This document shows, piece by piece, positions 33,942-58,150 of a stretch of DNA of 64,000 nucleotides. This DNA is from Nemertoderma westbladi (lineage: Eukaryota; Animalia; Xenacoelomorpha). The stretch lies in assembly GCA_032718475.1 (NCBI GenBank), contig JAUCBJ010005652.1:75676-139675 (forward strand), written 5' to 3'. The translations under genes were made by a program, and so were the position numbers. The notes under the pieces are model-generated. The model saw nothing but the letters and a program-made list of their open reading frames with translations. It was not told the origin of the DNA and searched no databases. How positions within the stretch are numbered: position 1 is the stretch's first letter; each line of letters begins with the position of its first letter.

Positions 33942-34019
33942 CCGCTCCCAGAAAATGGGATTTAAGTCTATAAAATATACAAAATCACAGTTTCTCAAAT
34001 ACGAAAATACTCTAAACAG

Positions 34020-36909: not shown

Positions 36910-39900
36910 TTATGTTATGGAGTCCCTAGATATTTGTCGGATTAGGGAAGTGGTCGTAGGAAGAGTATCTTGCCTTCCATAGTTTCCGGACAGTTTTTGG
37001 TCTCTTTCCAGTAAACATAAACGACCAGCTGGGTGATTGGGTTGTCGTGTTACTTTCTCCGCTCCCTTGGCCTGTCTAATCTCAGCCGGGTTAAGGTGGG
37101 GAGGCCATTCATCTTCTTCTTTACTTAGGGAGTCGGGTCCACCTAACCAGCCTGGAGTATCTATCAGTTCTTGAGGAGTTGCTCCTCTGGAAGCGATGTC
37201 GGCTGGATTAATCGTCCCAAGGCAATGTCTCCATTGATCTACATTGGAGTTAATATCGTCATTATCTGAGGAGTATGGTGTTCCCTCAGTTGGGTCGTCC
37301 ACATCACTGCTCTCCACTTCCCCCTTTACTTGGTATACCTGTTGTTGAGGTAATCTCTCTTTGAGAGTTCTACGGGAAGGGCCAGTGAAGTACCAACCTA
37401 CTCTAGTTCTTACCGCATAGGTTTGTAGTGGCTGTGGTTGAGCAGGCCGTTTCTCTAATGGCTCGAGCGCCTCATGCGCGTTTTGGCCGATGAGTATTTG
37501 CACTCCAGGATAATCGGTTTGGAATCGAGGTATCTCAAGATGTTGGATGCACTCGTCCTCGTCCCAGTTATAAGGTTCTGCTTGAGTAGTAGCAAAGTTC
37601 TTTATAGCCACCATTTTTACTGACCTTATACCTTGTGTTCCTAACTTATCCTGGGGGGTGGACAACACACCTACATAGTAATCTGCCGTTAGGGTAGATT
37701 TCCAAACCTGCATAATTCCTGACATATTCAATTTAGTCCGGAACTTGGGTTGTCCAGCAAAGATATCTTCGGCTAGTTCTTGATCGATGAATGTTCCTGT
37801 GATGCCGGAGTCAAGTAGGGCGTTCACTATGTAACTCTTGTTGGGACCATGAACTCGAACTTGCACTACAGGAAATTCTCTTATTCCTATGTTGGAAGTT
37901 GGAACTTTCCAAGATGGTTGTTTGTCAAAAGGAGTTGGAGTAAACTCGTCAGTGTCCTTTTCATCCGTAAGTGCTCGATACACTGTGGTATTTATTAGAT
38001 AACAGGATTCGTTGGCATCGGAGAATTCGTCTGTATAGAATCCTTCCCACTCAGAACCTTGGTCAGTGTCGTTCACATCACTGAATTGGACATGTAATTC
38101 GGGCTCACTTACCTGACTCGGGTTGTCTCGTTCGAACTCACTGTGTAACAAAATGTGATGTTTCGCGCCACACTTTGCACACTTTGCGTCGGAGTAACAG
38201 GTTCGCCGTTGGTGTCCTGATCTGAGGCAATTATAGCATAACCGCTTATTCCACAGGACTGTACGTCTGTCTACAGGGGATTTCTTTAGAAATTCAGCAC
38301 ACGCACTCAAACGGTGAGGCCCGTCGCACAGCGCACATTTTGGTTTGATGTTACTCACCTTAACTTGGTTAACGTTATGCACTCTCGTTCTTTCTTCGGG
38401 CTTTCTTCCGTGAATTCTCTTAGGAGACGTAGGAGGAGTTGTTGTTACCTGTTCTCTCCTGTCACTGGTTCGAGACTTGTATTTACTTACGTCTTTATAG
38501 GTCTTGTTGTCATAGTAAGATTTTGCTGTGTCTTTCCCGCTGTCCTCTTCTTGAGAAGCTTGGCTTTCGCCGTCGTCAGTATAACACACTGGTATTATCC
38601 TTCTCCTAGAATCGGGTTTCTCACTTACCTTATTTTCCGATGTTTTCTCTCTGGCCTGCCTTATAAGTTGTAATTTTACTTCACTATCTAAGAAAGACAT
38701 GAGATCAGCCATGGTAGGACTTCGTCGTTGTTGTTCATTCATGTACAACACTTTCTTGTCCCAGCGTGTACATACTCCACCCTTTGGTAAAGTAGAGACT
38801 ACGGCTCCAATAACCATGGAACTCTGATATTCATGCGACTTACCTAACCAGTCCAGTTGTCTACAGATCTCTTGAATTTCATCGGAAAACTCTATAATCC
38901 CGCTACTAAGGAAGTGTCGGGGGGCTACTAATTTTGCATACAAATACTTAGCTATGTTATCCTTGTTACCATACCTGATGTTTAGTGTATCCCAAACTTG
39001 TCTTAATCCATCTGGATGTCCAATAAACTTTAACGCCATTAACTTGGGAGGTCCTTCCAAGCACTTGATGAGGAATCTAAGTTTCTCTCCGTTAGATAGT
39101 ACAGAGTTCTGTATGCTATCTTTGTAATATTCGTTGAAAGGTAACCATTTCATCTCATCTCCATTGAATTTGACGATCTCTCCCACTTTGACCGCTTGGC
39201 GGGCTTCTGTTCTAGCCATCTGACGCGTAAAGCTTTCTTGGACCATCGTGTTATTTAATATCGAATTATCGGTATATAAATTTCTCGGATCATTATCAGG
39301 TCTATAGGGAATATCATTAATAACAGGTTTATAATCACCCTTAATAGGGTTTGCTATAGGAGTTTCAACTTCACTAGCAGTATAGATGCGTGTAGGCTCC
39401 ACACCTTGCGCATGTAGTACTTCAGACCTAACAGGTTGACACAATGTTACAGGGGGTATTGGTATGCCCTTTTGGATATTGACTAATTTGTCGCGTTCTA
39501 GTGCGATACTTTGCTGCACTTCTTGCAACTCTGCTCTACCTTCCCTCACTGTTCCCTTAAGTTGGTGGACAGTCTCCTGCATCTGTCCCAGCAGGAGATT
39601 CATCCCCCGCCGTCCCTCTTCCACCCACTCAACCGCCAAAGCGGGAGTCGCCAACATAGTAGCGGGCTGACGCGGGACGACGGGAGACAAATTATTGATT
39701 TCTCTCTCTGCTATCTGGACAGGGGTATTTGCATGGACTGTTCCACCGGGTACAGGCAGTGTAGTACTATGTAAAGGGAATTTAGAGTTAAGCTCTGGAA
39801 GTACAGGGGTCTCTAACACAGAAGTGACTTTGGGAACGACAGGCCTAATTATTTCAGGCTCATCAACTATTGTAGGGAGTCTTGTGACCTGAATAATTTG

Positions 39901-41109
39901 TTCTGTGGGTTCTGTACTACCTAAATCTGTGCTAGTTAGCTGTCTTTTAACAGCGGGGGGCAAATCAGGCAGTTTATGACGGTGAGATGTTTTTCTACGC
40001 CTGCTTAGACGAGATCTATTTCCTCCGCCTTCAGGATCGGTGGTCTCGCCTTCCTCCGATGATGTGTATCCTTGGCGCTTGGGAGTAGATCGACTCATCA
40101 TCTGCATTTGATTAGCAGTAAACTGTTTATTTATACTGTCTTGTGTCTCTTGCAGATTTTCCAACTCCAGTTGGGTAGTCTGCTCAGAGGCTCTCCGTTC
40201 TGCTTCGGCCACTGCCCTTTCCGCCTTTGCTTCTGCCGCCGCTGCCTTTCTTTTTGCTTCTGCTTCTGCCGCTGCTGCCCTTGCTGCTATTCTTTCTGCT
40301 TCTACTTCTGCCGCCGCTGCCTTTCTTTCTGCTTCTGCTTCTGCCATAGCCGCCGCCTTTTGTTCCTCTATCCTTCTTTTCTTTATTTGTTCTTCTCGGA
40401 CTCTAATGAGGCGGAGTTTTTCATCACATTCAGCTTGGTTTGCAGCTAACATTTCGGCATCGATTGCGTCCAACACAAGCTTGGTTCCTTCACTATTAGG
40501 GGAAAGTCCAGACAGCCGTCTCCTCAACTCTTCGTCTCCTAGGAATCGCTGATAGTCGGACAAATAAATGTCGATAGCGTCTCTAGTTCGCGGCTTCTCT
40601 GCTGATGTTAATTCGCTTTCCACTTCGCTTTCCACCTCGCTTTCCACTTCGCCTTCCACCTCACTTTCCACTTCGCCTTCCACCTCACTTTCCACTTGAG
40701 AAGAAGTGGCGTCGGTTGATTCCCCACAGGCTGGCCGCCCATCATAAACCGTATCCGCCATCTTCGCTCCGCGTTCGGGCGTCCGCTCAACAGTATCCGA
40801 ACTACTGGAGCTATCGGGCCGCTGAGAACTAGGTTCTTGGCTAGGAGGTTGCTGCTGTTTTATAGCTTCTTCTTGATCCCGCTTGACTTGGGCCCGAGTG
40901 CCTATGGCAGACCAACGGCGCTTCACTAACTTCGCAAATTGCGAAATCTTTTCTACCAACCTAGGTTCTGTCACAATCACCGCAGGGGTTGCCCTTCTTA
41001 CAGTATGAGGGGTTTCAGACCTCGGTCTGGGATTCTCTACACTTTGATCCGAGAAACAGGCTGTTGTTTCTAGGAGACTATCTGACAGAGTTTGCCTTGT
41101 GTCAGCCAT
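36910..41109 (-). CDS. BEL/Pao Gag-aspartic protease polyprotein of copy B; RT and integrase absent
   Basis: DUF1759-like KFNGDEMKWLPF; three knuckles CALCDGPHRLSAC, CYNCLRSGHQRRTC, CAKCGAKHHILLH; protease ALLDSG; RNase H tail QWRH..NPADIASRG..WLGGP. Confidence 0.93.
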   Translation of the reverse strand: MADTRQTLSDSLLETTACFSDQSVENPRPRSETPHTVRRATPAVIVTEPRLVEKISQFAKLVKRRWSAIGTRAQVKRDQEEAIKQQQPPSQEPSSQRPDSSSSSDTVERTPERGAKMADTVYDGRPACGESTDATSSQVESEVEGEVESEVEGEVESEVESEVESELTSAEKPRTRDAIDIYLSDYQRFLGDEELRRRLSGLSPNSEGTKLVLDAIDAEMLAANQAECDEKLRLIRVREEQIKKRRIEEQKAAAMAEAEAERKAAAAEVEAERIAARAAAAEAEAKRKAAAAEAKAERAVAEAERRASEQTTQLELENLQETQDSINKQFTANQMQMMSRSTPKRQGYTSSEEGETTDPEGGGNRSRLSRRRKTSHRHKLPDLPPAVKRQLTSTDLGSTEPTEQIIQVTRLPTIVDEPEIIRPVVPKVTSVLETPVLPELNSKFPLHSTTLPVPGGTVHANTPVQIAEREINNLSPVVPRQPATMLATPALAVEWVEEGRRGMNLLLGQMQETVHQLKGTVREGRAELQEVQQSIALERDKLVNIQKGIPIPPVTLCQPVRSEVLHAQGVEPTRIYTASEVETPIANPIKGDYKPVINDIPYRPDNDPRNLYTDNSILNNTMVQESFTRQMARTEARQAVKVGEIVKFNGDEMKWLPFNEYYKDSIQNSVLSNGEKLRFLIKCLEGPPKLMALKFIGHPDGLRQVWDTLNIRYGNKDNIAKYLYAKLVAPRHFLSSGIIEFSDEIQEICRQLDWLGKSHEYQSSMVIGAVVSTLPKGGVCTRWDKKVLYMNEQQRRSPTMADLMSFLDSEVKLQLIRQAREKTSENKVSEKPDSRRRIIPVCYTDDGESQASQEEDSGKDTAKSYYDNKTYKDVSKYKSRTSDRREQVTTTPPTSPKRIHGRKPEERTRVHNVNQVKVSNIKPKCALCDGPHRLSACAEFLKKSPVDRRTVLWNKRLCYNCLRSGHQRRTCYSDAKCAKCGAKHHILLHSEFERDNPSQVSEPELHVQFSDVNDTDQGSEWEGFYTDEFSDANESCYLINTTVYRALTDEKDTDEFTPTPFDKQPSWKVPTSNIGIREFPVVQVRVHGPNKSYIVNALLDSGITGTFIDQELAEDIFAGQPKFRTKLNMSGIMQVWKSTLTADYYVGVLSTPQDKLGTQGIRSVKMVAIKNFATTQAEPYNWDEDECIQHLEIPRFQTDYPGVQILIGQNAHEALEPLEKRPAQPQPLQTYAVRTRVGWYFTGPSRRTLKERLPQQQVYQVKGEVESSDVDDPTEGTPYSSDNDDINSNVDQWRHCLGTINPADIASRGATPQELIDTPGWLGGPDSLSKEEDEWPPHLNPAEIRQAKGAEKVTRQPNHPAGRLCLLERDQKLSGNYGRQDTLPTTTSLIRQISRDSIT

Positions 41110-43364
41110 GTTTGATTGTACAGTCGAATGCCTACTGCTATATTACAGTTAAAGCAAGTCTAGTAATTCAGTATCACTGTTAGCCTAATAATTAATTACC
41201 GATACTGCTACTCAGTGTAGCGTGATATATATATAATATATTAGAATACCGGTATGCTTATAATATATATATAAGTATTATTACAGACTAGATTTGTCAC
41301 AGAGTACCGGTATATAATTTTAGCACAAATATATATAAATATATAATAGGCCTATCGTGAATACCGGTATACAGCCTACACTTATAGTATATAAGTATAA
41401 TTCTGGACTATAATTAATTACAGAGTACCGGTATGATTTCAGCACAAATTTATAGAAATAAATATAATAAGCCTATGGTAAGTACCGGTATGTCAATTAT
41501 TTTTAGAATAATTGAATTCCTGAATATTTTAGGGTTACTTAGTTACTTTAACTTACTTTATTACCGTTATTTAAGCAGTAGTCCAACTGATATTGAGACC
41601 TAGTTGTTGTATGGCAGGCCTACTATTTATAAATCGTTTGAGTTGATTTATAATATTTATATACCCGTTTAAATGGGTTTTTGTCAATATTTGAAATAAA
41701 TGTTATTATTTCTGGGGGTCACTACACGGAAGCTGTGCACTCTCAGTGAAGTGCTATTTATTTGACACTAAAACTGATAATTCTAATTTACCTAAGTTAC
41801 TTAATACTACGAATTACTTACGATACGGGTGAGATTAATTCTCTAATTAAACACAACAAAATATTACGTACGAAATTTTTTAGGGTAATTTTACAGGAAG
41901 TCTACAAACCAGTCCAACAAAGGGTTAGATTTCTGGCTATTACAAAGGACAGGGTACTACGGTATTTAAATAATAAGTAGTAGTAAATATATTGTACTGT
42001 CCAGATAGGAAAATACCACCGCCTGACGACCTATAACCGTATCGCTATAGGTACTACGTTATGTATCACGGATTGTTCCTACCCAGAAGCTAATAGAGCT
42101 AACGAATGTGCCTATCAACCACTTTACAACACAAATATACTGCCTACACTAATTACTTTGGAAAGCACTGTACACTAAACCCTAAATTAGGTACAAGTAC
42201 CGGTATAACAAATAATCAGTAGTTAAATATACTTGAACAGTTAAAAGAACCACGGCATCTGCTGGAGTGACCGAAGCACAAAGTCGTCAGTCTTTACCTA
42301 CGCCAAGCAGCCCTGATGTAGTACCGGGGTTAGTTTAACTATAACGGTATGTATAACAAGCACAATTACTGTAGGAATAAACTTGGGGACATGAATGTTG
42401 CGAATAATCGCATAAACTCTGAATAATAAATATTACGCTACCCGTACAGAATACTCAAACAAATACAAACCAAACGCTGGCAGACTACTATTAAGCCTAA
42501 ACAAACTACAGTATATGTGCAGATTCTGAAACTGTTAGTTAGTATGCGTTCTAACACGGTAGTACGACTTACTCTTTAAGAGGGGATTGTCCTTACAGCA
42601 TATGGCTGCCCCAACTTACTAACGGCACTTGATCAGACCAACTCTACACACGCAGCAATCCCTTCAGACCCAAAAATAGCCAGACAACAATCCAGCCTAC
42701 AAAATATTTGAGTAATAACTATTACGGTACCTGAACAGACCACACAAACAAACACAGACTAAAACACTGGCAGACTACGATCAAGCCTAAACAAACTACA
42801 GTATGTGCAGATTCTGAGACTGTTAGTTAGTATGCGTTCTAACACGGTAGTACGACTTATTCTTTAAGAGGGGATTGACCTTCAGCATATGGCTGCCCCA
42901 ACTTACTAACGGCACTTGATCAGACCAACTCTACACACGCCGTAATCTCTCCAAACTCAACAACAGTCAGACAGCAGCTCAGCCTACAATTATCTGAACA
43001 ATCTGAGCAGGGTCACACGCCTTCTGCTCAATATTAGCCTACTAGTAAATAAAACCGACAGAAATAAGTAAACTATACAAAAGAATGAGGGGTGATCAAT
43101 CCCTATTCCCCTGGCAGCCTACAATATACAATAGATCACAATCGAAATAATACTAAATGTACTTGTACAGCAGTACCGGTACCGGTGATGACAGTTAGGC
43201 CTACTGACCTACAGAAGTACCGGTTCAGTTTTACCGGTCACTACGGTATTTTGCAACCTTATTGCTTACTGCAATAAGATCGATAACTGTTACTGTTCGA
43301 CAGAACAGTATTAAACTGTATTTAATGCCTACACTTGCAACCTTATTGCTTACTGCAATAAGAT

Positions 43365-43376
43365 TATAACTGTTAC
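43365..43376 (-). promoter_or_regulatory. Non-tRNA primer-binding site of copy B (sense GTAACAGTTATA), complementary to LTR 44120-44131 (33449-33460 in the 3' LTR)
   Basis: Perfect 12-nt inverted match ending exactly at the LTR edge. Confidence 0.78.
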
Positions 43377-44612
43377 TGTTCGCGCTTTTGAAGACCTTTA
43401 GCAGTTTAACCTGCCAAAATTTATATGTCTTTTAGTTAATTAACACACCTTTAGCATACGACAATATTTTATGCTAATAAACAAAACATTAGCCGAAGCC
43501 AGCCCATGCGCGATCATTCACCCGATGGATCTACACCCGGGAGGCTGAATTCGGATGCTTAGATTTTATTATTGCAGTGTAAGGTTGCAGTGTAAGCCTA
43601 CTGTATTATTCGATAGATCACTAATAATTAATTTCTGACAGATATTATTAACTTTCGGGAAATATTAACAGTTCCTTTAGGACGTGGCGCTCTATCTATT
43701 TAAACAGAGCTAGGACTTATACTAAACGCAACGATAAGGCTTATGATTAAAGTATAAGTCGCATTCTTTAGGAAATGCTTTGTTACCAGTCACATCACAC
43801 TCACAATCATGCACACTATTCTGCCGACCGTCAGTACATTTGATCACACATGAAGAGAACAGCAATTGACTCAGGTAGTGTCCACTAAATAACATTAGAT
43901 TCAATACACACCACATTGATATAAATCGCAATTGTTATATATAGCCCGCCTCTCTAACCTGTAGTGTATCAAGAAAATTGGGAATTTGGGTGATTTATCC
44001 GTATTATCCAAAGAGCAATATTTCCATCAACAAATAGGTACAATTAATAACTGACGGTAAATAGCAGTACAAACAATATGATTAGTGCAGTTAAATTAAG
44101 TGAGGTAACACCGCCGCCGGTAACAGTTATACTTTCTATAATCTAAGCAGTTTACTAGAGTTCTTACCAAAAAGCCGGTGTTTCTGGCTTGGACAGCAAT
44201 AACAACAAAGTATCAAGTAAAAACAGTAAGACTGAACACTCTCCTTATGATCGGCTGAAAAGCTACACGTCGACAGGAAAAATCGCTCTGATTGGCTCAA
44301 GCCAAACAAAGAACTATGCGTCCAATGGCTGTTTCCATGTCAGCAACCAGCTGTTAGATGTCGTAATATGAATCATCACGGCTAAGCTGTGAAAGGTAGT
44401 TGGTGCATTACAGGTTTTTTGCTTTACCATGTCCGCCAAAACACGTATATAGCAGAATGATTTTTATGTCCGTTAAAACACCTGTAACGGTACCTTGCGG
44501 GCGAGGGGAATATATATACAGTTAGAGAACCTTTTTAGAGTATTCCAGCGCCTGGGGGGAAACTGGATTGCGAAGCAAAAGGGGCCAGTTATATCCCACA
44601 GAAGCTTTTACA
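43377..44612 (-). repeat. 5' LTR of copy B
   Basis: Same sequence and length as 32706-33941; followed by the TSD. Confidence 0.97.
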
Positions 44613-44899
44613 CAGCCAGTGCATAATCTTGTACTTTGGCAGCCTCATGGAGTGAATAAGCATGGTGGACAGCCATGACTTTCTTGAGACGCATCTTAAA
44701 GGACACTGGCCTTAAAGATGCGGATGATCTAGCAAATGTCATGGGTGATAGGGAGTTGTGGCGGTGCAATTTTGTTGACTAGCCGGCACAGCATTCTTAA
44801 AAATGCAGCTGCAATGCAGCATGCCGATCCTAGTAGTAGTAGTTCCACATTAGTGTTGTGGTTTATACTATTAGTTGATACTTACATGAACAAGGTAGT

Positions 44900-47800
44900 A
44901 AACGAGTGCATTCTGCCAGTATGTTTCGAGTTTTATAACGCCAATAAACCCCAAAACCAACCCCAAAACCCATGTCCCACTCTCGACGCCCGAATTTCTG
45001 CCACCGAAGTTACAGAACCCAGTTAAACATGAGTATGTGTTTCATATATGGTTGCCATAAATAATTCGACATGTGATACATATATGTAAATGTTACAGTG
45101 TTGTCAAATGTGATCCATATGTGGAATGTTCACATGTGATACACATATGTTTTTTATGTGACAAGTGCGACAAAAAGAGTAAAAATTTAAACTGAGACCG
45201 ACCAATCACTGGTGTGGGTCTGCATTTCCTATAGAGAGGTGGGGCGGGGGGGGGGGGGTAGCCTACCTCAGTACCATTATCCTATCCAATCCCTACACCC
45301 TATCCTACGGCCCTACACCTACCCTATACATTTAGAGAAGGAAGCATCGGAGTATATATGACAATATTTAATCCATAGTGATATGAGAGTATCCTTAATA
45401 GATTTTGGTGATGATCCGTAAATTCGTATTCTATTAGTTAGATTTAATTAAGTTATCTAATTTCCAGCTATAATAGATTATTCATTTTGATAAATCTTCG
45501 AAAATTAATTAATTCTAAGATCATATAATTGCTCATATGATATTTTATATCTAATTTTAAGACATCTTTTCCCTACAACATATATATACCACATATGAAA
45601 CATATGTTCAATTTTTTAACGGGATAAGAACTGCAATAGGCCTGCCTACCTTACGGATGGTATAGTGCATGTATGTTATCTGTCTATGTCTGTACCCCTT
45701 ACTGATACTTAGCAGCGCAGATGACAATGCACAACCACAACCTGACAAGTGAAAACCACCATACAGTCATACATATGTTTGTCTAATTCTGTTAATACAG
45801 CACTGTACAGTGCAAATGGACAGCACAATGTGCATAGTGCAAGGCAGAAAGCAGGCAAGTCACACACTGCATCACTGAACAATTGAGTCAGTGAGTGGAC
45901 TATGATAAGCGGTAGGCTTATGCAACGCATTATGCTGTTATGGGTAAAATATAAAATAATTCGCGATTCACTAGCTAAACTGCAAGCGACACGACGTGGT
46001 TAAGAAGAAAGATTGGAGGATCAGACTATGAAATGCCTATCATTTTAAGAATGTGTCCCACCACCAGCCCTCAAATGCAATAAACAAAACAATTGGACGA
46101 TCGACTATGGTTACTTCAATTTAGTGTCCATACAGCCTTCACAGATCATTCAAACCTTATAGCAGGCCTATGTCTGTATGTATTGATTATACATTATATG
46201 GTTAAATAGCCGGTACTTTGAAAATACAGTATAACAAAAAATATAGATTCAACGTATTATACTGCTGATTAAAACGATATTTGTTCTTAATGCAAAAAGC
46301 TGAGTAGTGACATCAAGAAATTCCGCATCCCCCCTCGTTATTCTTTTCTGTACATGTATTACTGTAAGGACTGTATTACCATAAGGCAAACATGTGTGCA
46401 ACATATAAAATCCATGAACTGGATTACAAAATTACGAATTGAATAGTTTATAGATTGAAATTTAACTTCGGAGTCTTGGCTATGGCTATTTCACATATGC
46501 TCGACATATATTATTCACATGCGCATTCTCACACATTTATTTATGATAAATCATGTAAATTCATATGTGCAACATATAAATACCATAAATGGCGATACAC
46601 ACATTCTAAGTGTATGTATCACCGCATGCGTGACATGTATTATTCATACATGAGCATAAAAACCCAATTTCCAGACACACCTATTCCATACAACATATAT
46701 ATACCACATATGAAACATAAGTTCATGTTTAACTGGGAAGCAGTCAAAGACCAGAAAGCCCATAAGGCAGCTGGTCCAGACAGAATAACCAACGAAATAT
46801 TAAAATCCGGTTTTGGGTTATTATTACCCTACTTACTTGCTTTATTCTCTTTGTGCTTTAATTGTGCCTGTTGCCCAGTTTCGTGGTTAGCGTCGTATCT
46901 ACTACCACTTTACAAGGGAAAAGGCCCCAAGTGCTCTCCTGATAGTTATCGGGGTATAGCGATACTTTCTTGTTTACTCAAAACTTACACCGCCATTCTA
47001 TTTACTAGACTTTATACGTGGGCGGAGTCTCATTTTATTTTACCGGTCCAGCAGTTCGGCTTTCGAAAAAAGCATTCCACAAAAATGGCTGTCAATTTAC
47101 TGTATAACTTCATTCATACATCGCTACAACCCGCAGGTGGTCATGTGTATTGTGTTTTTGTTGATTTTACCAAAGCTTTTGACTCCGTTAACAGGCAAAA
47201 ACTTTGTTTTAAATTATCTCGTTTCGGTGTCAGCAAACATTTTATATCCTGTATTTGGGCCCTTATTGCTATTAATTTTGTCTACATTTGTGTTGGTGCA
47301 TACGTTCTACAGCCGATAATTCAGACCATTGGTGTTGTGCAAGGGGATAAACTTTCACCTCTTTTATTTAGTTTGTTTGTTGCAGATCTACCTAGTATTT
47401 TAGTTGCAGCTGGCTGCCTTGTTATTATGATGCCGACGACCTGGCAATAGATGGTAACTCGATTGTTGACGTACAAAATGGTCTTGATTCTCTAGTTGAC
47501 TATTGTAAGGTAAATGACCTAACCGTCAATTTATCCAAAACCAAAGCCATAAAATTTCGCCGGGGAGGTCGCATGTGTAACAATGATGTTCTAATTTACA
47601 AAGGTACGAAGATCGAATTTGTCAGTGAGTTTAATTATCTCGGTACAACTCTCTCAACCAAAAATGGCCCCAGCGGTCACTTCGCGCACTTGCACAAAAG
47701 GGGTCTGGCATGCTGTGTCCACTTAGCCTCGAAAATAAATATGTATCTGATCTCCTTAGACTCAGCAAAACGTCTATGGCTCTCGGTGGTCTTCCCTGCA

Positions 47801-48215
47801 GTCACCCATGGGTGCGATATTTTCACACCCTCCGAGAACATTGCCGTTCTAGAACATGTTCGCAAATGTCGCGCCTTTTATTTTAAACTGTGGTGTGGAG
47901 TAAGCAAGTTCTCCTCCTCCACTGCGATACTAGACGCCGTAGACAACGTCGTCAACCCCGATTGTGACATCAGGTTGGGAGGCCTGTCCGGCTTCCGCCG
48001 CCGTGCAGCGGCGTTGCTTCTCTCCAACGGGTGTCATCAGACTCTTTGCAGCAGTCCCAACTGTTGGAAAGCGGATGATGGTTGCATCTGCTTGCTGTGC
48101 ATCAATCCGGCTGACACTAAATTGCACTTCAAATCTTGCCCTGGCATTCCCCCATGCGCGACTGACCTTCGATGCGCTCTTTTCCTTCTCACCCTGGGTC
48201 TCCCCAAATAATTAT
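44900..48215 (+). mobile_element. 5'-truncated non-LTR retrotransposon (LINE; RT plus C-terminal CCHC), interrupted at 45018-46737
   Basis: Removing the insert restores LDARISATEVTEAVKDQKAHKAAGPDRI. Motifs YRGIAIL, QFGFRK, FVDFTKAFDSV, QGDKLSPLLF, frameshifted ADD, FNYLG, CLLC..H..SCP. Confidence 0.88.
45018..46737. mobile_element. Non-autonomous CACTA/EnSpm-like element (CCC...GGG, 2-bp TSD AA)
   Basis: TIR CCCAGTTAAACATGA / TCATGTTTAACTGGG. AA is duplicated and the LINE frame is restored on removal. Subterminal CATATG/CACAT repeats; a second right-end-like copy ends at 45623. Confidence 0.88.
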
Positions 48216-48639
48216 TTTTATCACTGTTTGCCATATTTTAATCGCCTTATATTTTTCTGCCACTGTATATTTAAATTATATGAATTCATACGTAGGCTAC
48301 TTACTGTATTGTATATAATTATATTACTCGTATGAGTGTTACCCTGTTACCCATTTGTATTATTATTTAACTAATATTCCGAATGTTATGGGATTAAAAT
48401 AAATAAATTCATAAAACCAAAACGGTGACACAGGATAAAACACGGACGTACAGTATTGGGAATCAGTGCATGTAAATGCGGCCATGTGAAGTATCACAGG
48501 ATTCCATTCCCCAGCGAAAAAATAAACACATCGGAAAGGAATCTGGCCCATTCACTATATCATTAGGCAACTTTCGTATTTTCCCGTGCTGGGCGATGTC
48601 CTTTATTTTATGAGGGGGATGATCTGTCGATCAGTCAGT

Positions 48640-49345
48640 CGGATGGTAAGTAAGAAGGTGGGTGGTGGGTGGAGCAGATGTTGGAAGGTGGGTGGATGGC
48701 AGGTGGTTGGATGGGCTTATGGGAAGGTGCCTGGATTGGCATGTGGTAAGATGAGAAAGTGGGTGGGCGGGAATGTGAGGAGGTGGCCGGATGGTATTTT
48801 ATTGTTTTGGTTAGAAAAAACAGCCCCTGTAACATTCTCCTTTCCCTCAGTTGCTAGGTGACATAATCGTTTGTTTTGGTTAGAACCGTACCTCTATAAC
48901 CTGCTCCTTTCCCTCAATTGGTAGGTAGGTATCAACAAAGTTTAATGTTTTGGTTAGAAAAGCAAAACCATGTACAGATGTAACCTGCTCGACACACTTT
49001 TATTGTTTTGGTTCTGAGGTAAGTAACAACAACATCGTTTATTGTTTTGGTTAGAAAAGCCAGATTATGTGAACTGCTTTATTCCCTAAATTGGTAACAA
49101 CATCGATTATTGTTTTGGTTAGAAAATCCAACCCCTGTATCCTTAACCTGCTCCTTTTCCCTCAATTTGTAGGTACCTACATCGTTTATTGTTTTGGTTA
49201 GAAATTGCCGCCGCTGAAACCTGCTCTTTTCCTTCAATTGGAAGGTAACAACAGCGTTTATTGATTTGAGTCCCACATTCCCATCCACCTTTCCACATTC
49301 CCATCTTCCCACATTCCCATCAACCTTCACATCTTTCCTTCATCG
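48640..49345. repeat. Degenerate tandem array of TTTATTGTTTTGGTTAGAA-containing units, flanked by G-rich and C-rich arms
   Basis: The motif repeats about 7 times at 48798-49203; its reverse complement also occurs at ~10762 and ~23395. Confidence 0.6.
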
Positions 49346-49730
49346 TCTGGGTATAAACTCCACCGTATCAGCTGGCAATCAGGGCAATATGCGGCATGTT
49401 AGTGTTTCGCCATATTCGGCAGTACATAGAGGCCTACCCCTTCATGGGGGTTGTTATGTATATATTAACTTAAAGGAAGAACAGGAGTCTTACACCCCCA
49501 ATAAAAAATATAGAATCAGGACATTTAGCCCAAAATATACTTCTCGACACCTAGGGTCATCGAAGAACAACAAACACACAAACAAATATAAATACATGCT
49601 AAACATAGAGTTATGTCTGTTAGTCAGTATGTCGTTAACATCAATTATTATAACGAACCTGCCTATTAATAGGCCAGGGTAGTTCTTGTCAAGAGTTGAG
49701 CCGTTTAAAAACACGATGTGGTTGTGTGTG

Positions 49731-50934
49731 TGTTCGCGCTTTCAGACCTTTGGCAGTTTAACCCGCCAAATTAGGATGTCTTCTAGATAATAAATCACCT
49801 TTAGCCTATGACAAGTATTTAATTCACTACACTAGTCGAAACCAATCTGTGCGCGATCATTCACCCGTTGGATATACCCGGGAGATTGGGTTCGACGGCT
49901 TAATTTTATTGCTATGTAAGCCTAATGTATTATTCGACTGACAGTATTATATAATCTCTGACAATATTATTCACCTTCGGGAAATATTAACAGTTCCTTT
50001 AGGACGTGGCGCTCTATCTATATAAACAGAGTTATGACTTAAACTACTCACAACGATATGGCTTAGTTACAATTCACATATATGGCGCATTCTTTAGGAA
50101 ATGCTTCGTTATCAGTCTCACTCATACACAATGCTGCACAATACTGCACACTGATCTGCCGATCTTCACTGATTTTAGTCACATATAAAAGGAACACGGA
50201 CCGAATCATGTAGGGTCTATCAAATAACATTAGATTCACTTCAAACCACTCAACATAGGTCGCAATCATTTATCTGTAACCTTTCTCTCTTACCTTCGGT
50301 ATATCAAGAATATTGGGTTTTCGGGGTTATTTGTCGTTATTCCAAATATAATAATTCATCAACCATATTATGAAGAACTGACAGTAAATAGCAGTATAAC
50401 AATATAAAAGTATGCACAGTGTTACACAGTATGCAGTGTATGCAGTACTGCAGTATGCAGTATGCAGACATCAGACATCAGATAACGGATATATGTCCTT
50501 ATAATTAAGCCTACTAGTGTAAGACTAAAAACTGAAAACACGGAGGTGCCAAAAGCCGGTTCTTAGGCTCTGGGCAAAACATAACACTGAACTACTGAGT
50601 TTCTGTATACACCTCCAACACAGAGACAACAAACGCTCTGATTGGTCAACCTGAACAACGAGAGAACAAAGAAACAAAGAAACGTCGACGTGGCAATATC
50701 AGCTGCTAGCCGTCGTCATGGTAGCGACACTGTTTTCAAGAGTATCGAGCTTTTACGTCACGGAATTACGGATTATGTCCTCTAAAGTACAAATACAGAA
50801 GAAATAGCTTTTATGTCCGCTAAAACACCAGTACAGCAAGGACACGGCCTTTTTATGCCTGGTAAACCAACTACAGAGTATTTTACGGGAAAAATAAGGA
50901 AAAATAACCGGACAATTCAGCAAAAGCTTTTACA
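49731..50934 (-). repeat. 3' LTR of copy C (1204 bp)
   Basis: TGTTCGCGC...AGCTTTTACA, followed by CCGCTCCCAGAAAATGGG as in copy B. Confidence 0.95.
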
Positions 50935-51012
50935 CCGCTCCCAGAAAATGGGATTTTCAGTCTATAAAATATAAAAATCACAGTTTCTAAAACATAAAGA
51001 TACTCTAAACAG

Positions 51013-52375
51013 TTAGTCTTTCTTACGCAGACGGCGTTTACGCAGTTTTTTGAGGCTAGCAAGAGTCTTTTTCTCTTTGGGGGGAGCCACTTTACTAGGA
51101 GGGCCATAACTCCTGGGTGAAGGGTGCAATATGATTGCATCAGAAGGTCTAGGTTTATGGTCGAGGTATCTGCCGTTTCGATATGCTTCTCCTCGAGCTG
51201 ATTTTCCTCCACTCGTAGCTGGATACGTTCATCCAAAAACTCTCGCAGAGAATAGGATCGTCCAAGTTCGATAACTTCTTAGAGATTCTGGATTTCCCAA
51301 TCGAATTGAGATAAGGCCAATTCGTTTATCGATTGGACTTACTGTTATAACTTACGTTTATCTGAACAAACGCAGGTTTCTTTTTTGATCTTTATAGAAT
51401 AGCGTTTAACTCGTTTCGTACAACGCTCTCCTTCACCTTGATGAGGGGTTGTATCGCGTTAAACGGGACAACCATACGGTTGGATAGTGATATTAGGTGT
51501 CTGCGTCATAATCCGGCTAGGTAAGATGGGCGGCTAGCTAGAAATCACTGTCGGAGTGTTACCGATTAATTGTTAGGGTAGCACTAGATCTTTGAACAGT
51601 GAATACAGTCCGCGAGGATCCGCGACACCACCAGGATCGCAGGTCTGAGGTCCAACTAAGGAATGAGGAGGTTTGACCGAGTATTCCGGGACTCTGATCG
51701 TAGGTTTACTCCAGGATCGTTCGAGCCGAGTGAGCATAGGTGATACGTCAACAAGTTTCGGTTTACGTGGATGTTTATGTCTTTCCGTTTATTAGTTGGG
51801 TCTAGGGCATTTATCGTAATAATACCAAAGACGCACGTCTGGTAGGGTAAACGCGGGTGATATTTATTTGTTGTTACAATGCTTCTATCAAGAATTCCAA
51901 ATATACGTTGGAGTTACCGCGTTTATTTGTTTCTTTAGTGTCTTTTCTTTCGAGTCGATTTCGAATAGAATTTTCGCATTCGAATTTCAGTTTATGGTTC
52001 CGACTCCGCTGGGCAGGATATATAGTCGACATAGTCCGTATTATGTTAATCGATAGGATGACCAGTAGTTAAGAAGCCCATATACGTACCATTACGCTGC
52101 GTATATTGAGCAGCGAATTTTCTATAGTCCAACTCACGCGTGAGCTGCTCTTGGGACATTGGCGGTTCGATATAACGACCATCGTCCTCCGCAGCAGTTG
52201 GACTAACGTCGCCGCGTATTAAGCTATCAACAAACGCTTGTAAAAGTAGGGTATATCGCTCCCCGATACCAAGACCATCTTCTATCAACTCCGTCATATC
52301 TGCTATATATGAGTTTATCCATATTATAATGAGTCCACATTTAGGCGAGCGGGCGTCGCTGCCTACCCCAATCAA
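51013..52375 (-). CDS. Accessory 3' coding region of copy C (homologous to 34020-35330)
   Basis: 52046..52375 shares AFVDSLIRG..EDDGRYIEPPMSQEQLTRELDYRK..FLTTGHPID. The 3' end reads LHPSPRSYGPPSKVAPPKEKKTLASLKKLRKRRLRKKD* with the same stop position as B. Confidence 0.6.
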
Positions 52376-54145
52376 CCCCCGGACAGTACGAGATCCTCAG
52401 CGCCGATGTGTCGTCGCCGCCGTACTTTCGCCAACGACGTAGCCGCACAACGACAACGACAACCGGCACAAGTCACTCGACTGTCCGTCCCAAAGGCTTA
52501 GATGTACTTCAGGTTTTCCTTGGAGAGTTAGGTTACTTTTACGATTGCGACTAGCTACTGTAAACACACCTTAGCAGTAACATTCACCTATAAACTCACA
52601 AATACCACACAACTGGTCACAACTACGCACATTCGGGCCATTTGTCCGTTAGTCAATGCCTTCCAGAATGTCACTGTATTATTATGTATCCTTGGATACT
52701 AGTAGTGCGCTATTTATTCCCTATGCTATTCAATGGGACAAGCTTTCTATTGTTCTTTTAACTCAATTCTAATTCTAGCGTGGTTGTTGCTATGGTGACA
52801 TTATGCAAAGCTAGCGGTAGAATTAGGGTAATTCCAATGCATACAGATCTGGGATGTTATTTAATAGTAATTCTTTAATAGTCAATGTCCTGTTTTATAC
52901 ATGACTTTATGAATTTTATCGGCTATTGACTATGTTTGGGAGACTTTCGCACACTCATACGCATAATAAGATAAATCTCCGCTCCCTTGATCTATTAATT
53001 AATGGAATTTTGGGAATGTTATAAATTGCGTAAAAATGGCAATTTATTAAATTCATTAAAAGGCATGAATTTAAATTTATTCCCTGAAATTTTATTATTT
53101 GATAATTAAATGGGCATATTTTGATTCTAGAACATGTCTAGGGACACAAGATCCTTAATTCTAAGAAAATTGTCTCTTTAAGAATATCGGTAAATGCTAC
53201 GATATCTTAATTGACTAGAATTGTTGAAGGATCTGAATTTTACAGATTTTGACTTATTTGATTTGTAAATATTAAATAATTAATATTTGAGATGGGCACC
53301 GATTTATTCCAGAACTTGTCTGGGGACGTTAACCACTGATTCTAGAATTTGTCTTTCAAGTATATCGGTGGGTGCCGCGATATCTTAATCGACTAGAATT
53401 ACAGATGGTCAAAGGGTTTAACAGATTTATTTTGCGTTATACGCTACTGTTAAAGGGACATCACGCTACTATATGTATTATTTAATATACGGTATGAGAG
53501 CAATATCGCACGAAGCAATGTCAGTGTGAAGAGGCAAGTCGTTTCCAAGGTCTACCCAGAGCTTGGTTTAGCCGAGACACGAGGATCTGAACTTTGCATT
53601 CCTAATACTCTGCCTACCAATAATACTTGAATATAGTAGTGGCTTTATTGTACTTTAATAAGTACAGACATTTCATCTTACTGTAGCTACGTATTTATAA
53701 TATAATACGGACAGTAAGGAAGGAGAAAAAGAATTATTTCTTGCCGTCGCATTAAATATAATATATACGTAATTAAGTAATAAACGCGAATATATATTGC
53801 ACTAATCTACTAAATAATCGCTAAAATAACATTCTACTGAATAAAATTAAAGAAAACGATTATAATAAAATTACATAGTAATACATACGTAAATATAAAA
53901 ATAATAAAATAATATAAAATAATAGAGTCACACACCCACTCCATATGTTGCTACGTTATGGAGTCCCTAGATGTTTGAAGGATTAGGGAGGTGGTCGTGG
54001 GAAGAGAATCTTGCCTTCCACAGTTTCCGGAGAGTCCTCCATTCCCTTCCGGTAAACACAAACGACCGACTGGGTGATTGAGTCGCTGCATCCCGAATAC
54101 AATTCCAGGTTTCCTCTTCGTCCTGGAATAGTGACGATAGAAACA

Positions 54146-57100
54146 TCACTCAAAGTATATGACGGCGTTACAAAGCCGATTCCAGGAGCTATAGTGGTCC
54201 GTCGCTCCCTGCAGGAGAGGTAAGAGTCCCTGCGAGACGTCTGATGTTCCAGAGCTCCAATCGCTCCCTCTGATCTTCATGAAGGATCCACTCGCGGTGG
54301 GGAGGTCCAGATCCACGGCGTCGTCCCTGGCAATATGTAATACCGACAGATCTATCCCGGGTTCAAATAACTCCGCTCCACCCGTCCGGGTTTTAGGTTT
54401 AACTTTCTCCGCTCCCTTGGCTGGTCTAATCTCAGTCGGAGTAAGATGGGGAGACCATTCATCCTCCTTACTCAGGAAGTCGGGTTCACCTAACCGGTCT
54501 GTAGTATCTGTCAGTTCTTGAGGAGTTGCTCCTCTGGAAGCGATATCAGTTGGATTAAACTTCTTGGGGCAATATCTCCATTGATCTACATTGGAGCTAA
54601 GATTGTCATTATCTGAGGAGTGTGGTGTTCCCTCAGTTGGGTCGTCTCCCTCACTAGTATCATCTTCCCATTCACTCACCTGGCGGACGCGATCTTGAAG
54701 CAGTCTTTCCCTGAGCGTTCTACGGGAAGGTCCAGTAAGGTACCAACCTACTCTAGTTCTTACCGCATAGGTCTGTAGTGGCTGCGGTTGAGCAGGTCGT
54801 TTCTCTAATGTCTCCAGCGCCTCATGCGCGTTTTGGCCGATGAGTATTTGCACTCCAGGATAATCAGTCTGGAATCGAGGTATGTTAAGATGTTGGATGC
54901 TCTCATCCTCGTCCCAATTATAAAGGTCTGCTTGAGTAGTAGCGAAGTTCTTTATAGCCACCATTTTCACTGACCTTATGCTATGTTCTCCTAGTTCGTC
55001 CTGGGGGGTGGACAACGCGCCTACATAATAATCAGCTGTTACTGTAGATTTCCAAACTTGCATGATTCCTGACATGTTTAGCTTGGTTCCGAACTTGGGT
55101 TGTCCAGCAAAGATGACTTCGGCTAGTTCTTTATCGATGAATGTTCCTGTGCTACCGGAGTCCAGGAGGGCGTTCACTATATAGCTCTTCTGAGGTCCGT
55201 GGACCCGTAACTGGACTACAGGAAATTCTCGGATTCCTATATTGGAAGTTGGCGCTTTCCAAGATGGTTGTTGATCGGAAGTAGTTAAGGTAGGGTCGCT
55301 GTCTGTGTCTTTCTCATACACGAGTGCTCGATACACTGCGGTGGTGTTTATTAGGTAACAGGATTCGTTTTGGTCGGAGAACTCGTCCGTATAGAATCCT
55401 TCCATCTCAGATTGATCAGTGTCGTTCACATCACTGAATTGGACATGTAGTTCGGACTCACTTACCTGACTCGGGCTGTTTCGTTCGAATTCCGTGTGCA
55501 ACAAGATATGATGTTTTGCGCCGCACTTTGCACACCTTGCGTCGGAGTTACAGGTTCGCCGTTGGTGTCCTCGTCTGAGGCAATTATAACACAACCGCTT
55601 ATCCCACATGACTTCACGTCTATCCTTTAGTGATTTCCTCAGGAATTTATCACACGCATTTAAACGGTGGGGCCCGTCGCACAGCACACATTTCGGCTTG
55701 ATGTTACTTACTTTAACCTGTGCTATGTGGTGCACACTTGTTCTTTCCTCGGGCTTTCTCACCTGAATTCTTTTAGGAGACGTAGGAAGGGTTTTTTGTA
55801 CCGGTTCCCTTCTGTCATTGGGTCGAGACTCGGATTTACTTACCTGATCTTTAGGCATTTTATTGACATAATAAGATCTGTCAGTGTCTTTCCCGCTGTC
55901 CTCTCCTTGAGAAGTTTGGCTTTCACCGTCGTCGGTATAACATACTGGTGTTACACTTCTCCTAGAAACGGGTTTCTCACTTACCTTGTTTTCCAATGTC
56001 TTCTCTCTGGACTGCCTTAGGAGCTGTAATTTCACTTCTCTATCTAAGAATGACATGAGATCAGCCATGGTAGGGTCTCGTCGTTGTTGTTCCATCATAT
56101 ATAACACTTTCTTATCCCAGCGTGTACCTACTCCACCCTTCGGTAAAGTAGAAGCCACTGCTCTAATAACCATAGCACTCTGATACTCATGAGACTTACC
56201 TAGCCAATCTAATTGTCTGCAGATCTCCTGAATTTCATCGGAAAACTCTATAATCCCGCTGCTAATAAACTTTCGGGGCGCTACCAACTTTGCATACAAA
56301 TACCCAGCTATGTTATTCCTATTACCATACCTGATGTTTAGTGTATCCCAAACTTGTCTTAATCCGTCTGGATGTCCAATAAACCTTAACGCCATTAACT
56401 TGGGAGATCCTTCCAAGCACTCGATGAGGTATCTAAGTTTTTCTCCATTAGATAGTACAGAGTTCTGTATGTTATCTTTGTAATATTCATTAAAAGGTAA
56501 CCATTTCATCTCATCTCCATTGAACTTGACGATCTCTCCCACCTTTACCGCTTGCCGGGCTTCGGTTCTAGCCATTTGACGCGTAAAACTTTCTTGGGCC
56601 ATCGTGTTATTTAATATAGAATTATCGATATATAAATTTCTCGGATTATGATCAGTTCTATAGGGAATATCATTATCAACAGGTCTATAATTACCCTTAA
56701 TAGGGTTCACTATAGGAGTTTCTACTTCGCTAGCAGTATAGATGCGTGTAGGCTCCACACCTTGCGCATGAGATACTTCAGACCTAACGGGTTGACACAT
56801 TGTTACAGAGGGTGGTGGTATACCCTTTTTTAAGTTTACTAATTTATCGCGTTCTAACGCGATACTTTGCTGCACTTCTTGCAACTCTAACTTACTTTCC
56901 CTCACTGTTCCTTTTAAATGTTGGACAGTCCCTTCCAACTCTCGGACCTGTTGGGAAGAGCGTATCCGATTCTCCTTCATCTCTCCTAGGAGAATATCCA
57001 TCCCCCGCCGTCTCTCGTCTACCCAATCAACCGCCGAAACGGGATCCGCCAACGTCGTAGCGGGCAAACGAGGGACAACGGGCGACAAATTTGGAATATT

Positions 57101-58150
57101 TCGCTCGGGGTCCAGGACCTGAACTGTCTCCTGGGCAGTTCTACGGGGCACAGGTAGCTTAGTGCTATGCAGAGGGAATTTATAGGTAGCTTCAGGGAGC
57201 ACAGGTGTATCTATTACCGAAGGGGTGATTTCAAGAACAGGCCTACCTATTTCAGGCTCATCTACTATAGTAGGGAGTCTTTCTATTGTAATTATTTGGT
57301 CTGTGGGTTCTGTACTCTCTAAGTTGGTGTTATTTAGTTGCCTTCTAACAGCTGGAGGCAAATCAGGCAATTTCTGACGGTGGAATGTTCTTTTACGTCT
57401 GCTTAGGCGGGATCGATTTCCTCCGCCTTCAGTGTCGGTGGTATCGCCTTCCTCAGATGATGTATAACCTTGTCTTTTGGGAGTAGATCGATTCATCATC
57501 TGCATATTACTAGCTGTTAACTGTTTATTAAAGTTATCTTGCCTCTCTTGAAGATTTTCCAACTCTAGTTGGGTTGTCTCTTCAGATGCCCTCCGTTCTG
57601 CTTCTGCCACTGCTATCTTTCTTTCCGCTTCTGCCGCTGCCGCTTTCCTTTCCGCTTCTACGGCTGCAGCTGCCGCCTTTGCCTCTGCCGCTGCCGCTTT
57701 CCTTTCCGCTTCTACGGCTGCAGCTGCCGCTTTTGCCTCTGCCGCTGCCGCTTTTATTGCTGCAGCTGCCGCTTTTGCCTCTGCCGCTGCCTCTGCTGCC
57801 TTTCTTTCCGCTTCTGCCGCTGCCACTGCCGCTGCTGCTGTCTTTCTATCTTCTATACGTTTTTTCCTTACTTGCTCTTCTTGAACTCTATTGATGCGGA
57901 GGAGTTCATCAAATTTAGCTTGGTTCGCCGCTAACATTTCCGCATCAATTGCGTCCACCACAAGCTTGGTTCCTTCACTATTAGGGCTAAGCCCCTCCAG
58001 CCTTCTCCTCAACTCGTCATCTCCTAAAAAACGCTGATAGTCTGACAGATAGATGTCAATGGCATCCCTCTTATGCGGTTTCTCTGCTGTCACTTCGCTC
58101 TCGGTTGTATCTAGTAGACTGTCTGACAGGTTCTGCTTTGCGTCAGACAT
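54146..58150 (-). CDS. BEL/Pao Gag-aspartic protease polyprotein of copy C; RT and integrase absent
   Basis: Same domains as B: three knuckles, ALLDSGSTGTFI, QWRY..NPTDIASRG. Ends in the pre-integrase-like YSSWNRLCNAVIYF. Confidence 0.93.
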   Translation of the reverse strand: MSDAKQNLSDSLLDTTESEVTAEKPHKRDAIDIYLSDYQRFLGDDELRRRLEGLSPNSEGTKLVVDAIDAEMLAANQAKFDELLRINRVQEEQVRKKRIEDRKTAAAAVAAAEAERKAAEAAAEAKAAAAAIKAAAAEAKAAAAAVEAERKAAAAEAKAAAAAVEAERKAAAAEAERKIAVAEAERRASEETTQLELENLQERQDNFNKQLTASNMQMMNRSTPKRQGYTSSEEGDTTDTEGGGNRSRLSRRKRTFHRQKLPDLPPAVRRQLNNTNLESTEPTDQIITIERLPTIVDEPEIGRPVLEITPSVIDTPVLPEATYKFPLHSTKLPVPRRTAQETVQVLDPERNIPNLSPVVPRLPATTLADPVSAVDWVDERRRGMDILLGEMKENRIRSSQQVRELEGTVQHLKGTVRESKLELQEVQQSIALERDKLVNLKKGIPPPSVTMCQPVRSEVSHAQGVEPTRIYTASEVETPIVNPIKGNYRPVDNDIPYRTDHNPRNLYIDNSILNNTMAQESFTRQMARTEARQAVKVGEIVKFNGDEMKWLPFNEYYKDNIQNSVLSNGEKLRYLIECLEGSPKLMALRFIGHPDGLRQVWDTLNIRYGNRNNIAGYLYAKLVAPRKFISSGIIEFSDEIQEICRQLDWLGKSHEYQSAMVIRAVASTLPKGGVGTRWDKKVLYMMEQQRRDPTMADLMSFLDREVKLQLLRQSREKTLENKVSEKPVSRRSVTPVCYTDDGESQTSQGEDSGKDTDRSYYVNKMPKDQVSKSESRPNDRREPVQKTLPTSPKRIQVRKPEERTSVHHIAQVKVSNIKPKCVLCDGPHRLNACDKFLRKSLKDRREVMWDKRLCYNCLRRGHQRRTCNSDARCAKCGAKHHILLHTEFERNSPSQVSESELHVQFSDVNDTDQSEMEGFYTDEFSDQNESCYLINTTAVYRALVYEKDTDSDPTLTTSDQQPSWKAPTSNIGIREFPVVQLRVHGPQKSYIVNALLDSGSTGTFIDKELAEVIFAGQPKFGTKLNMSGIMQVWKSTVTADYYVGALSTPQDELGEHSIRSVKMVAIKNFATTQADLYNWDEDESIQHLNIPRFQTDYPGVQILIGQNAHEALETLEKRPAQPQPLQTYAVRTRVGWYLTGPSRRTLRERLLQDRVRQVSEWEDDTSEGDDPTEGTPHSSDNDNLSSNVDQWRYCPKKFNPTDIASRGATPQELTDTTDRLGEPDFLSKEDEWSPHLTPTEIRPAKGAEKVKPKTRTGGAELFEPGIDLSVLHIARDDAVDLDLPTASGSFMKIRGSDWSSGTSDVSQGLLPLLQGATDHYSSWNRLCNAVIYFE

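Follow-up and report, generated by a model that had tools for sequence, protein, structure and literature searches.

Three related elements with long terminal repeats in a Nemertoderma westbladi contig

Analysis of a 64,000-nt stretch of the Nemertoderma westbladi genome (assembly GCA_032718475.1, contig JAUCBJ010005652.1, positions 75,676 to 139,675, forward strand; the window below) revealed three related elements with long terminal repeats (LTRs), designated A, B, and C, all located on the minus strand. Element B is complete (32706 to 44612, 11.9 kb) and consists of 1236-bp LTRs, a 2.3-kb leader, one open reading frame of 1399 codons, and approximately 3 kb of 3' sequence. Element C retains its full 3' LTR but only 351 bases of the 5' LTR, and its single frame runs to 1334 codons. 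The domain order in both frames is Gag, three zinc knuckles, protease, and a short RNase H tail. Element A runs off the window within gag, and two breaks interrupt its frame.

The first-pass annotation of this DNA, made from the sequence without database searches, had described B and C as open for more than 1300 codons despite clear divergence. Translation from ATG yielded proteins of 1399 and 1334 amino acids, respectively, and over 1203 codons the two copies share 79% protein and 83% DNA identity. The LTRs of A, B, and C are 78 to 82% identical in aligned columns, and the noncoding DNA of B and C is 82 to 98% identical. The upper value belongs to a 300-base noncoding 3' stretch (36296 to 36596 in B, 53339 to 53639 in C) that is 98% identical, with neighbors at 87 to 91%; it is a candidate for a cis element or for a recent exchange. 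The N terminus of Gag becomes shorter, in frame, in the order A, B, C (2088 to 2666, 40625 to 41060): that of A is about 580 bases longer than that of B, and about 460 bases of B are absent from C.

The BEL Gag domain DUF1759 (PF03564) was detected in A, B, and C (Pfam E value of about 1e-11), and the neighbors of Gag in the protein atlas are DUF1759 clusters (0.91 to 0.95). The knuckle region scored inside the range of held-out BEL proteins, and a D-S-G protease triad was read in the translations of both B and C. On the strength of these sequence features, namely, the DUF1759 Gag with knuckles, the in-frame protease, and, in B, the TG...CA LTRs with a polypurine tract and a 5-bp target-site duplication (TSD), B and C are BEL/Pao LTR elements, as had been proposed.

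The reverse transcriptase region is missing in frame from B and C

A polyprotein profile was generated from 55 BEL proteins of 1600 to 2100 residues, picked by length. Domain landmarks were placed on it from the Pfam coordinates of the BEL protein P0003, and their borders are approximate. The profile matched B at model positions 29 to 699 and 1251 to 1311 and C at positions 31 to 695 and 1251 to 1308, and only 35 to 40 residues separate the two matched stretches in the elements. Therefore, about 550 positions, which in P0003 hold the reverse transcriptase (RT) and the Peptidase_A17 part of RNase H, are absent in frame from both copies. No other stretch within B or C scored with this profile. 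Across the 2681 six-frame segments into which the window was translated, profiles of the RT, RNase H core, and integrase core gave a best E value of only 2.3; in the same search, C (1e-19) and B (1.3e-17) were detected with the protease profile. In tblastn searches, seven BEL polyproteins matched Gag, the knuckles, the protease, and the short RNase H tail; neither RT nor integrase was matched in the elements. The loss of RT and integrase noted in the first reading was thus corroborated, and a hidden or spliced pol inside the elements was ruled out by the tblastn, polyprotein, and domain profile searches. A possible scrap of the integrase C terminus, noticed by eye at the end of B and C, was not detected by two profiles of that region and is not claimed.

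From the conserved acidic stretch behind the protease up to the RNase H tail, no gap interrupts the alignment of B and C, the profile resumes at position 1251 in both, and both junction peptides quoted by the first-pass annotation were found in the two translations. The RT/RNase H junction is therefore collinear in B and C. The loss as a whole is not identical, because the integrase side differs: C retains about 309 bases past the tail and then stops, whereas B lacks them and reads on in frame. The claim of one common loss thus stands for the first deletion and fails for the second.

Assembled contigs allowed the junction to be located more closely. They were taken from 6 of 38 loose-end rows and 8 of 554 pieces of the public run X3. 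Among these, at least seven contigs depart from B at 37253 and at least one at 37255, coming from the protease side; contigs with only the RNase H side depart at 37242 (556 bp, depth 9.7) and 37241 (154 bp, depth 18.3). Run X1 holds a 558-bp contig that shares the limits of the 556-bp contig. Together with profile resumption at 37251, the departures on both sides bracket the junction to 37243 to 37252. They also indicate that junction-free relatives exist in the same runs; these contigs are candidates for a parent or a helper and no more. In run X5, which is labeled as a different organism, all 30 bins of the B coding region (36000 to 41300) were covered at 80% likeness, and no contig bridging the junction was present among the contigs listed.

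Gag-protease is constrained, and the RNase H remnant drifts near neutrality

Selection was estimated for B versus C with a pairwise maximum-likelihood codon model, and a counting method served as a comparison. The ratio of nonsynonymous to synonymous divergence (dN/dS, or omega), which the first reading had proposed to compute, was 0.25 over 1182 codons, far below 1 (p of about 1e-46). Omega was 0.17 in the capsid-like domain, 0.28 in the knuckles, 0.13 in the protease, and 0.15 to 0.37 in the N terminus and the linkers. The RNase H tail gave 0.58 (p = 0.22 against 1), or 0.72 with the junction included, and differed from the capsid plus protease with p = 0.003. The counting method gave 0.23 overall, 0.13 for the capsid, 0.11 for the protease, and 0.45 for the tail. 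Pieces of A compared with B and C yielded 0.23 to 0.33. Within the frame, 18 of 21 insertions or deletions are multiples of three, and the remaining three sum to a net six bases; outside it, this holds for 6 of 59 in the 5' untranslated region (UTR) and 4 of 28 in the 3' region. These results indicate that Gag-protease is constrained and that the RNase H remnant is drifting near neutrality, in agreement with the earlier proposal that the family is selected to keep its own capsid and protease.

In the RNase H remnant, 17 of 121 bases differ between B and C. Because the tail has changed to this extent and is not measurably constrained, B and C have long carried a useless remnant. Neutral change of 5 to 8% per lineage would be expected to produce 7 to 11 stop codons per copy upstream of the junction, and none was observed. 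A near-neutral tail downstream of a frame free of stops indicates that the selection on Gag-protease postdates the loss of pol, unless intact elements recently donated gag to both copies.

Recent insertion and possible abundance

The first-pass annotation had credited B with apparently identical LTRs and a perfect TSD. The LTRs of B start with TG, end with CA, show no difference in 1236 positions, and are flanked by identical 5-base sequences. Together, the LTR identity and the TSD indicate a recent copying and insertion of B in its deleted form. By the rule of three, its LTR divergence is at most about 0.24%, whereas the tails of B and C differ by 14%. The LTR identity, which was seen in one window, may also stem from gene conversion or assembly smoothing. 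Element C also inserted recently (no difference in 351 positions) and has since lost most of its 5' LTR; because only the last 351 bases of that LTR are kept, C offers no TSD to test. A depth of 9251 was recorded for one X3 contig that shows one difference from B, and divergent relatives have depths of 10 to 33. Together with three copies in 64 kb, this suggests that many copies exist; the depth is uncalibrated and gives no copy number.

Primer-binding sites complementary to the elements' own LTRs

The primer-binding sites (PBS) of A, B, and C do not resemble tRNA sites at their start. Instead, beginning directly at the LTR end, each is perfectly complementary to a site in the LTR of the same element, over 11 nt in A (4898 to 4908 with 5698 to 5708), 12 nt in B (43365 to 43376 with 44120 to 44131), and 12 nt in C (60516 to 60527 with 50482 to 50493). 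The complements lie at LTR offsets of 413 (A), 482 (B), and 442 (C). Among 1000 shuffled LTRs, this length of complementarity was reached once for A and never for B or C. The three PBS sequences differ, and the best matches between the PBS of one copy and the LTR of another span only 5 to 6 nt. Such covariation between a PBS and its own LTR has the appearance of a self-priming signature with the geometry of Tf1 and Tj1.

In a predicted fold of B begun at the 44131-side site, all 12 bases are paired, 11 of them with probabilities of 0.81 to 1.0, and the predicted primer duplex adjoins a stem formed by the LTR end and the leader. An RNA start at this site would imply an R-U5 region of about 750 nt. 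A motif resembling a splice donor, recognized by eye, is conserved at about 43950 to 43962 and at the matching LTR places in A and C, downstream of the predicted RNA start; a spliced Gag mRNA without a PBS is possible.

A probable non-autonomous family with borrowed pol functions

We consider it probable that B and C are diverged BEL/Pao copies that share one old RT/RNase H deletion, keep Gag-protease under purifying selection, and remain mobile by means of borrowed RT, RNase H, and integrase. Descent of both from a single old deletion is likely, and so is continued movement with borrowed enzymes. The first-pass annotation had arrived at a family of this kind; the low dN/dS, the collinear junction, and the lack of pol inside the elements support it, with a helper postulated. 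The element RNA would be translated into Gag-protease, which would package its own RNA preferentially. This preference is assumed because otherwise gag mutants would ride free and omega would rise. Helper Gag-Pol would then co-assemble into the same particle, its RNase H would cut the self-primer off the 5' end of the RNA, its RT would copy the RNA, and its integrase would insert the product. The two RT frames of the window (12115 to 13365 and 46443 to 48211) were considered as helpers and rejected, since neither matched the BEL profiles.

Several observations weigh against this reading. The junction is spanned by two copies only, since the window edge cuts A before it. The tail estimate comes from 61 codons and has an interval of 0.20 to 1.21. 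A tail score as low as that of B occurred in 10 of the 55 held-out proteins, and one as low as that of C in 2 of 55, so that this score gives no sign of decay in the tail of B; the proteases of B and C scored below all 55, which may reflect a distant lineage. The fold of A lacks the predicted primer duplex (probability of 0.03). The summed X3 depth is about 225,000 across the junction versus 350,000 to 500,000 and 390,000 to 790,000 on its flanks, a dip that could stem from contig breaks at variant sites or from a real share of junction-free copies. Protein searches for a partner or close relative returned eight matches of near length and one shorter match, nothing closer than about 20 to 42% identity; the best 150 of 12056 representatives showed 25 to 39% identity and included no close relative or partner.

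The remaining observations on this side concern recombination. Synonymous divergence (dS) is 0.18 to 0.25 at the junction and tail, with the value of 0.18 for the two together, versus 0.35 to 0.50 in six of seven gag-protease segments and 0.79 at the N terminus. Four-fold degenerate sites differ at 2 of 28 positions in the junction and tail versus 110 of 379 elsewhere (p = 0.014, post hoc test), and a three-way mosaic test among A, B, and C (max-chi) was borderline (p = 0.053). Between the protease and the junction lies a hypervariable patch of 25 codons (37300 to 37375) with a dS of 1.6, where loose contig ends and a joint were present in runs X1, X3, and X4. Given that dS drops from gag to the junction, recombination may contribute; it probably shaped the family, and part of the measured constraint could come from autonomous donors. 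Carried to its end, this would mean that a deletion backbone younger than the gag divergence took gag-protease from different autonomous subfamilies by template switching and that much of the selection acted in intact elements. The position of the patch just upstream of the junction, noncoding regions (82 to 98% identical) that are more alike than the synonymous sites of gag, and contigs that carry the protease-side sequence of B without the junction fit such a mosaic. We nevertheless regard it as unlikely. The 17 changes in 121 bases of the tail imply an old junction, and the expected stops would be absent only if each copy had recently captured gag. The listed contigs with the RNase H side but no junction are of low depth (9.7 and 18.3). 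A gag more diverged than its flanks is also found in the non-autonomous Quinta elements, where it arises by recombination among their own lineages, according to the part of that report consulted (PMC11302176).

If an autonomous element repeatedly gave rise to dead-end derivatives with the same deletion, through a hot spot or a reverse-transcribed spliced RNA, B and C would be independent. Among 106 profiled BEL proteins of less than full length, nine do have in-frame jumps of more than 250 positions (P0023, P0052, P0054, P0055, P0074, P0077, P0091, P0111, and P0144), the barnacle protein P0023 lands at model position 1249, beside the 1251 of B and C, and the integrase-side junction differs between the two copies. 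Fresh tails, however, should have kept the parental constraint, and the observed omega of 0.58 to 0.72 lies above that of the capsid and protease; B and C also both lack integrase and share a broken 3' coding region. Independent origin is accordingly very unlikely in our view. As to the jump proteins themselves, P0023 retains the integrase zinc finger, and the six of nine that were looked up belong to clusters of one to three members.

Precedents exist in the restriction of Ty1 copy number by a Gag-derived product and in domesticated capsid genes, and the strong constraint on capsid and protease without pol would suit a Gag-protease kept for restraining the autonomous family or for serving the host. 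A domesticated gene would be expected as a fixed locus with diverged or lost LTRs. Here the LTRs, polypurine tract, covarying PBS, and TSD are kept, the LTRs of B are identical, and three diverged copies, one of them with a broken gag, lie within 64 kb. We hold this explanation to be the least likely of those considered.

Under the preferred reading of a Gag-protease family that borrows its remaining enzymes, a semi-autonomous lifestyle described from plant Gypsy elements would extend to animal BEL/Pao. The RNase H stub would act as a built-in neutral control, placing the selection on Gag-protease later than the loss of pol. In an element unable to copy itself, a constrained Gag would imply that Pol is shared, whereas Gag works preferentially for its own RNA. 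Such a family would be invisible to RT-based annotation although seemingly abundant. A more tentative extension, which we hold to be possible but doubtful, is a mutualistic two-part system: the abundant self-priming Gag-protease family would give surplus capsid and gain RT, RNase H, and integrase from a single-frame Gag-Pol partner unable to make such a surplus. If so, a primer of its own on each RNA would permit a private PBS in each subfamily with one helper, and the pairing rule of plants, a shared PBS, would be lost.

Comparison with known systems

The cited reports were consulted in part, and the comparisons refer to those parts. The closest precedent is RLG_Sabrina_SA, a Gypsy family of wheat and barley with 5397 copies that carries GAG and protease without RT or integrase, is termed semi-autonomous, and is proposed to supply Gag while relying on the autonomous RLG_Wilma (PMC9744471). 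It shares with B and C, the two copies that span the region, an intact Gag-protease frame without RT and integrase. Unlike this plant Ty3/Gypsy family, B and C are animal BEL/Pao elements, an in-frame RNase H remnant marks their deletion, and their PBS pairs with their own LTR. RLG_Quinta, whose partner is RLG_Cereba, is likewise a long-lived non-autonomous keeper of Gag (28 to 35 My, with recombination among lineages) whose gag is more diverged than the flanks (PMC11302176). Its GAG is accompanied by a domain of unknown function, with no protease named in the part consulted, and it shares its PBS with a known partner, whereas the PBS here differs among A, B, and C.

The first-pass annotation had likened the elements to plant TR-GAG, which have a single Gag frame between LTRs with a PBS, a polypurine tract, and a 5-bp TSD, and for which transposition was reported (PMC8704663). 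The similar way of working holds. Membership does not, because TR-GAG elements are shorter than 4 kb by definition and were selected for having no protease similarity (PMC4350172), whereas B measures 11.9 kb and has a conserved protease (omega of 0.13); RLG_Sabrina_SA is closer. Autonomous BEL/Pao elements (Belpaoviridae; for example, P0003, P0004, P0006, and P0017) share with B and C the DUF1759 domain, knuckles, protease, RNase H C-terminal segment, single frame, TG...CA LTRs, and 5-bp TSD. They differ in having RT, the RNase H core, and integrase. The best matches to B and C are only about 20 to 42% identical, and 1.2-kb LTRs and approximately 3 kb of 3' sequence set the B/C family apart.

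The priming of Tf1 reportedly requires RNase H for the primer cut. In Tf1 and Tj1, the PBS directly follows the 5' LTR and has its complement inside the LTR of the same element (PMC4600332), and self-priming is described for Tf1/Sushi, Tcn1, and TAR elements (PMC6317226). The LTR-adjacent, non-tRNA PBS of all three copies resembles this arrangement, which those reports describe in autonomous Gypsy chromoviruses and plant TAR Copia elements; here it is found in BEL/Pao elements without an RNase H of their own. Non-autonomous animal LTR families include noncoding ones (PMC3286476) and Troyka (PMC12440569). The consulted parts of PMC3286476, PMC6934838, PMC3601003, and PMC12440569 contain no case of a Gag-protease-only or self-primed BEL/Pao element. 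Nor was such a family found in the literature covered, which leaves out Repbase, subscription journals, and supplements and so does not establish absence from print. The lifestyle is already known from plant Gypsy elements; new are its setting in animal BEL/Pao elements, an RNase H stub that evolves neutrally, and a self-primer specific to each copy.

Coordinates of the elements

Table 1. Features of elements A, B, and C (positions in the window)
Feature	Position	Strand	Remarks
B 5' LTR	43377..44612	-	1236 bp, TG...CA, 0 differences from 3' LTR
B 3' LTR	32706..33941	-	Pairs with 5' LTR, 0/1236 differences
B TSD, upstream copy (5 bp)	44613..44617	-	Identical to 32701-32705
B TSD, downstream copy (5 bp)	32701..32705	-	Identical to 44613-44617
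B primer-binding site (12 nt)	43365..43376	-	Directly after LTR, without tRNA-type TGG start; exact complement of 44120-44131
B LTR segment complementary to PBS	44120..44131	-	Predicted self-primer, putative RNA 5' end
B 5' UTR	41110..43376	-	Includes a duplicated unit of ~288 bp
B single open frame (1399 aa)	36910..41109	-	Gag, zinc knuckles, protease, RNase H tail
B capsid-like domain (DUF1759, PF03564)	38782..39168	-	E 8.5e-12; omega 0.17
B zinc-knuckle region	38137..38337	-	tblastn E 5e-11 to P0003; omega 0.28
B aspartic protease	37372..37839	-	Profile E 1.3e-17; D-S-G triad; omega 0.13
B RT/RNase H deletion junction	37243..37252	-	Profile resumes at 37251; bracketed by contig ends
B RNase H C-terminal remnant	37066..37251	-	Profile E 1e-13; omega 0.58, p 0.22 against 1
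B second junction	37040..37052	-	~309 bases kept in C absent; loose contig ends at 37052 in runs X3, X4, X5
B second coding region, frame-broken	34020..35282	-	omega 0.29 on 69 codons shared with C
B polypurine tract	33942..33950	-	Same as that of C; read before 3' LTR
C 5' LTR remnant (last 351 bp)	60528..60878	-	0/351 differences from 3' LTR
C primer-binding site (12 nt)	60516..60527	-	Unlike that of B; exact complement of 50482-50493 in own LTR
C single open frame (1334 aa)	54146..58150	-	ATG-initiated
C aspartic protease	54722..55189	-	Profile E 1e-19
C RNase H C-terminal remnant	54425..54598	-	Profile E 1.9e-9
C-only segment past RNase H tail	54084..54401	-	Holds stop codon of C; best match of post-RNase H profile, only E 0.61
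C 3' LTR (1204 bp)	49731..50934	-	LTR comparison
Element A, cut by window edge	1..6120	-	5' LTR 4909-6120; own 11-nt self-complementary PBS
A gag breaks	Stop 2012-2014; frame change near 1345-1359	-	omega 0.23-0.33 vs B and C

Second coding region and other contents of the window

A second, frame-broken coding region precedes the polypurine tract in B (34020 to 35282) and C (51013 to 52310). The copies have the same basic end peptide and a shared start with an omega of 0.29, and their middles (34181 to 34934 in B, 51174 to 51946 in C) are unrelated. This 3' coding remnant gave no usable Pfam match (best E value of 0.054) and no atlas cluster above 0.81; these results speak neither for nor against an env gene.

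The RT frame at 12115 to 13365 (RVT_1, E value of 5.6e-32) lies between inverted repeats of about 170 bp that are 92% identical, and the whole (11219 to 13928) is possibly a Penelope-like or nested element. Between B and C, two consecutive RVT_1 frames that are not BEL-like (46443 to 48211) probably represent a broken non-LTR element. Host genes in single frames encode an LSG1 GTPase (26822 to 29347, 841 codons), a ribosomal S10 domain (22086 to 22934), and a glycosyl hydrolase 20 domain (18105 to 19886). The best animal matches of LSG1 are about 38 to 55% identical over part of the query. These genes suggest an intron-poor, divergent animal host with no close relative among the matches. Tandem arrays are located at 15443 to 18100 (43-bp unit), 62586 to 64000 (21 bp), 7252 to 9239 (30/42 bp), and 20198 to 21172 (54 bp).

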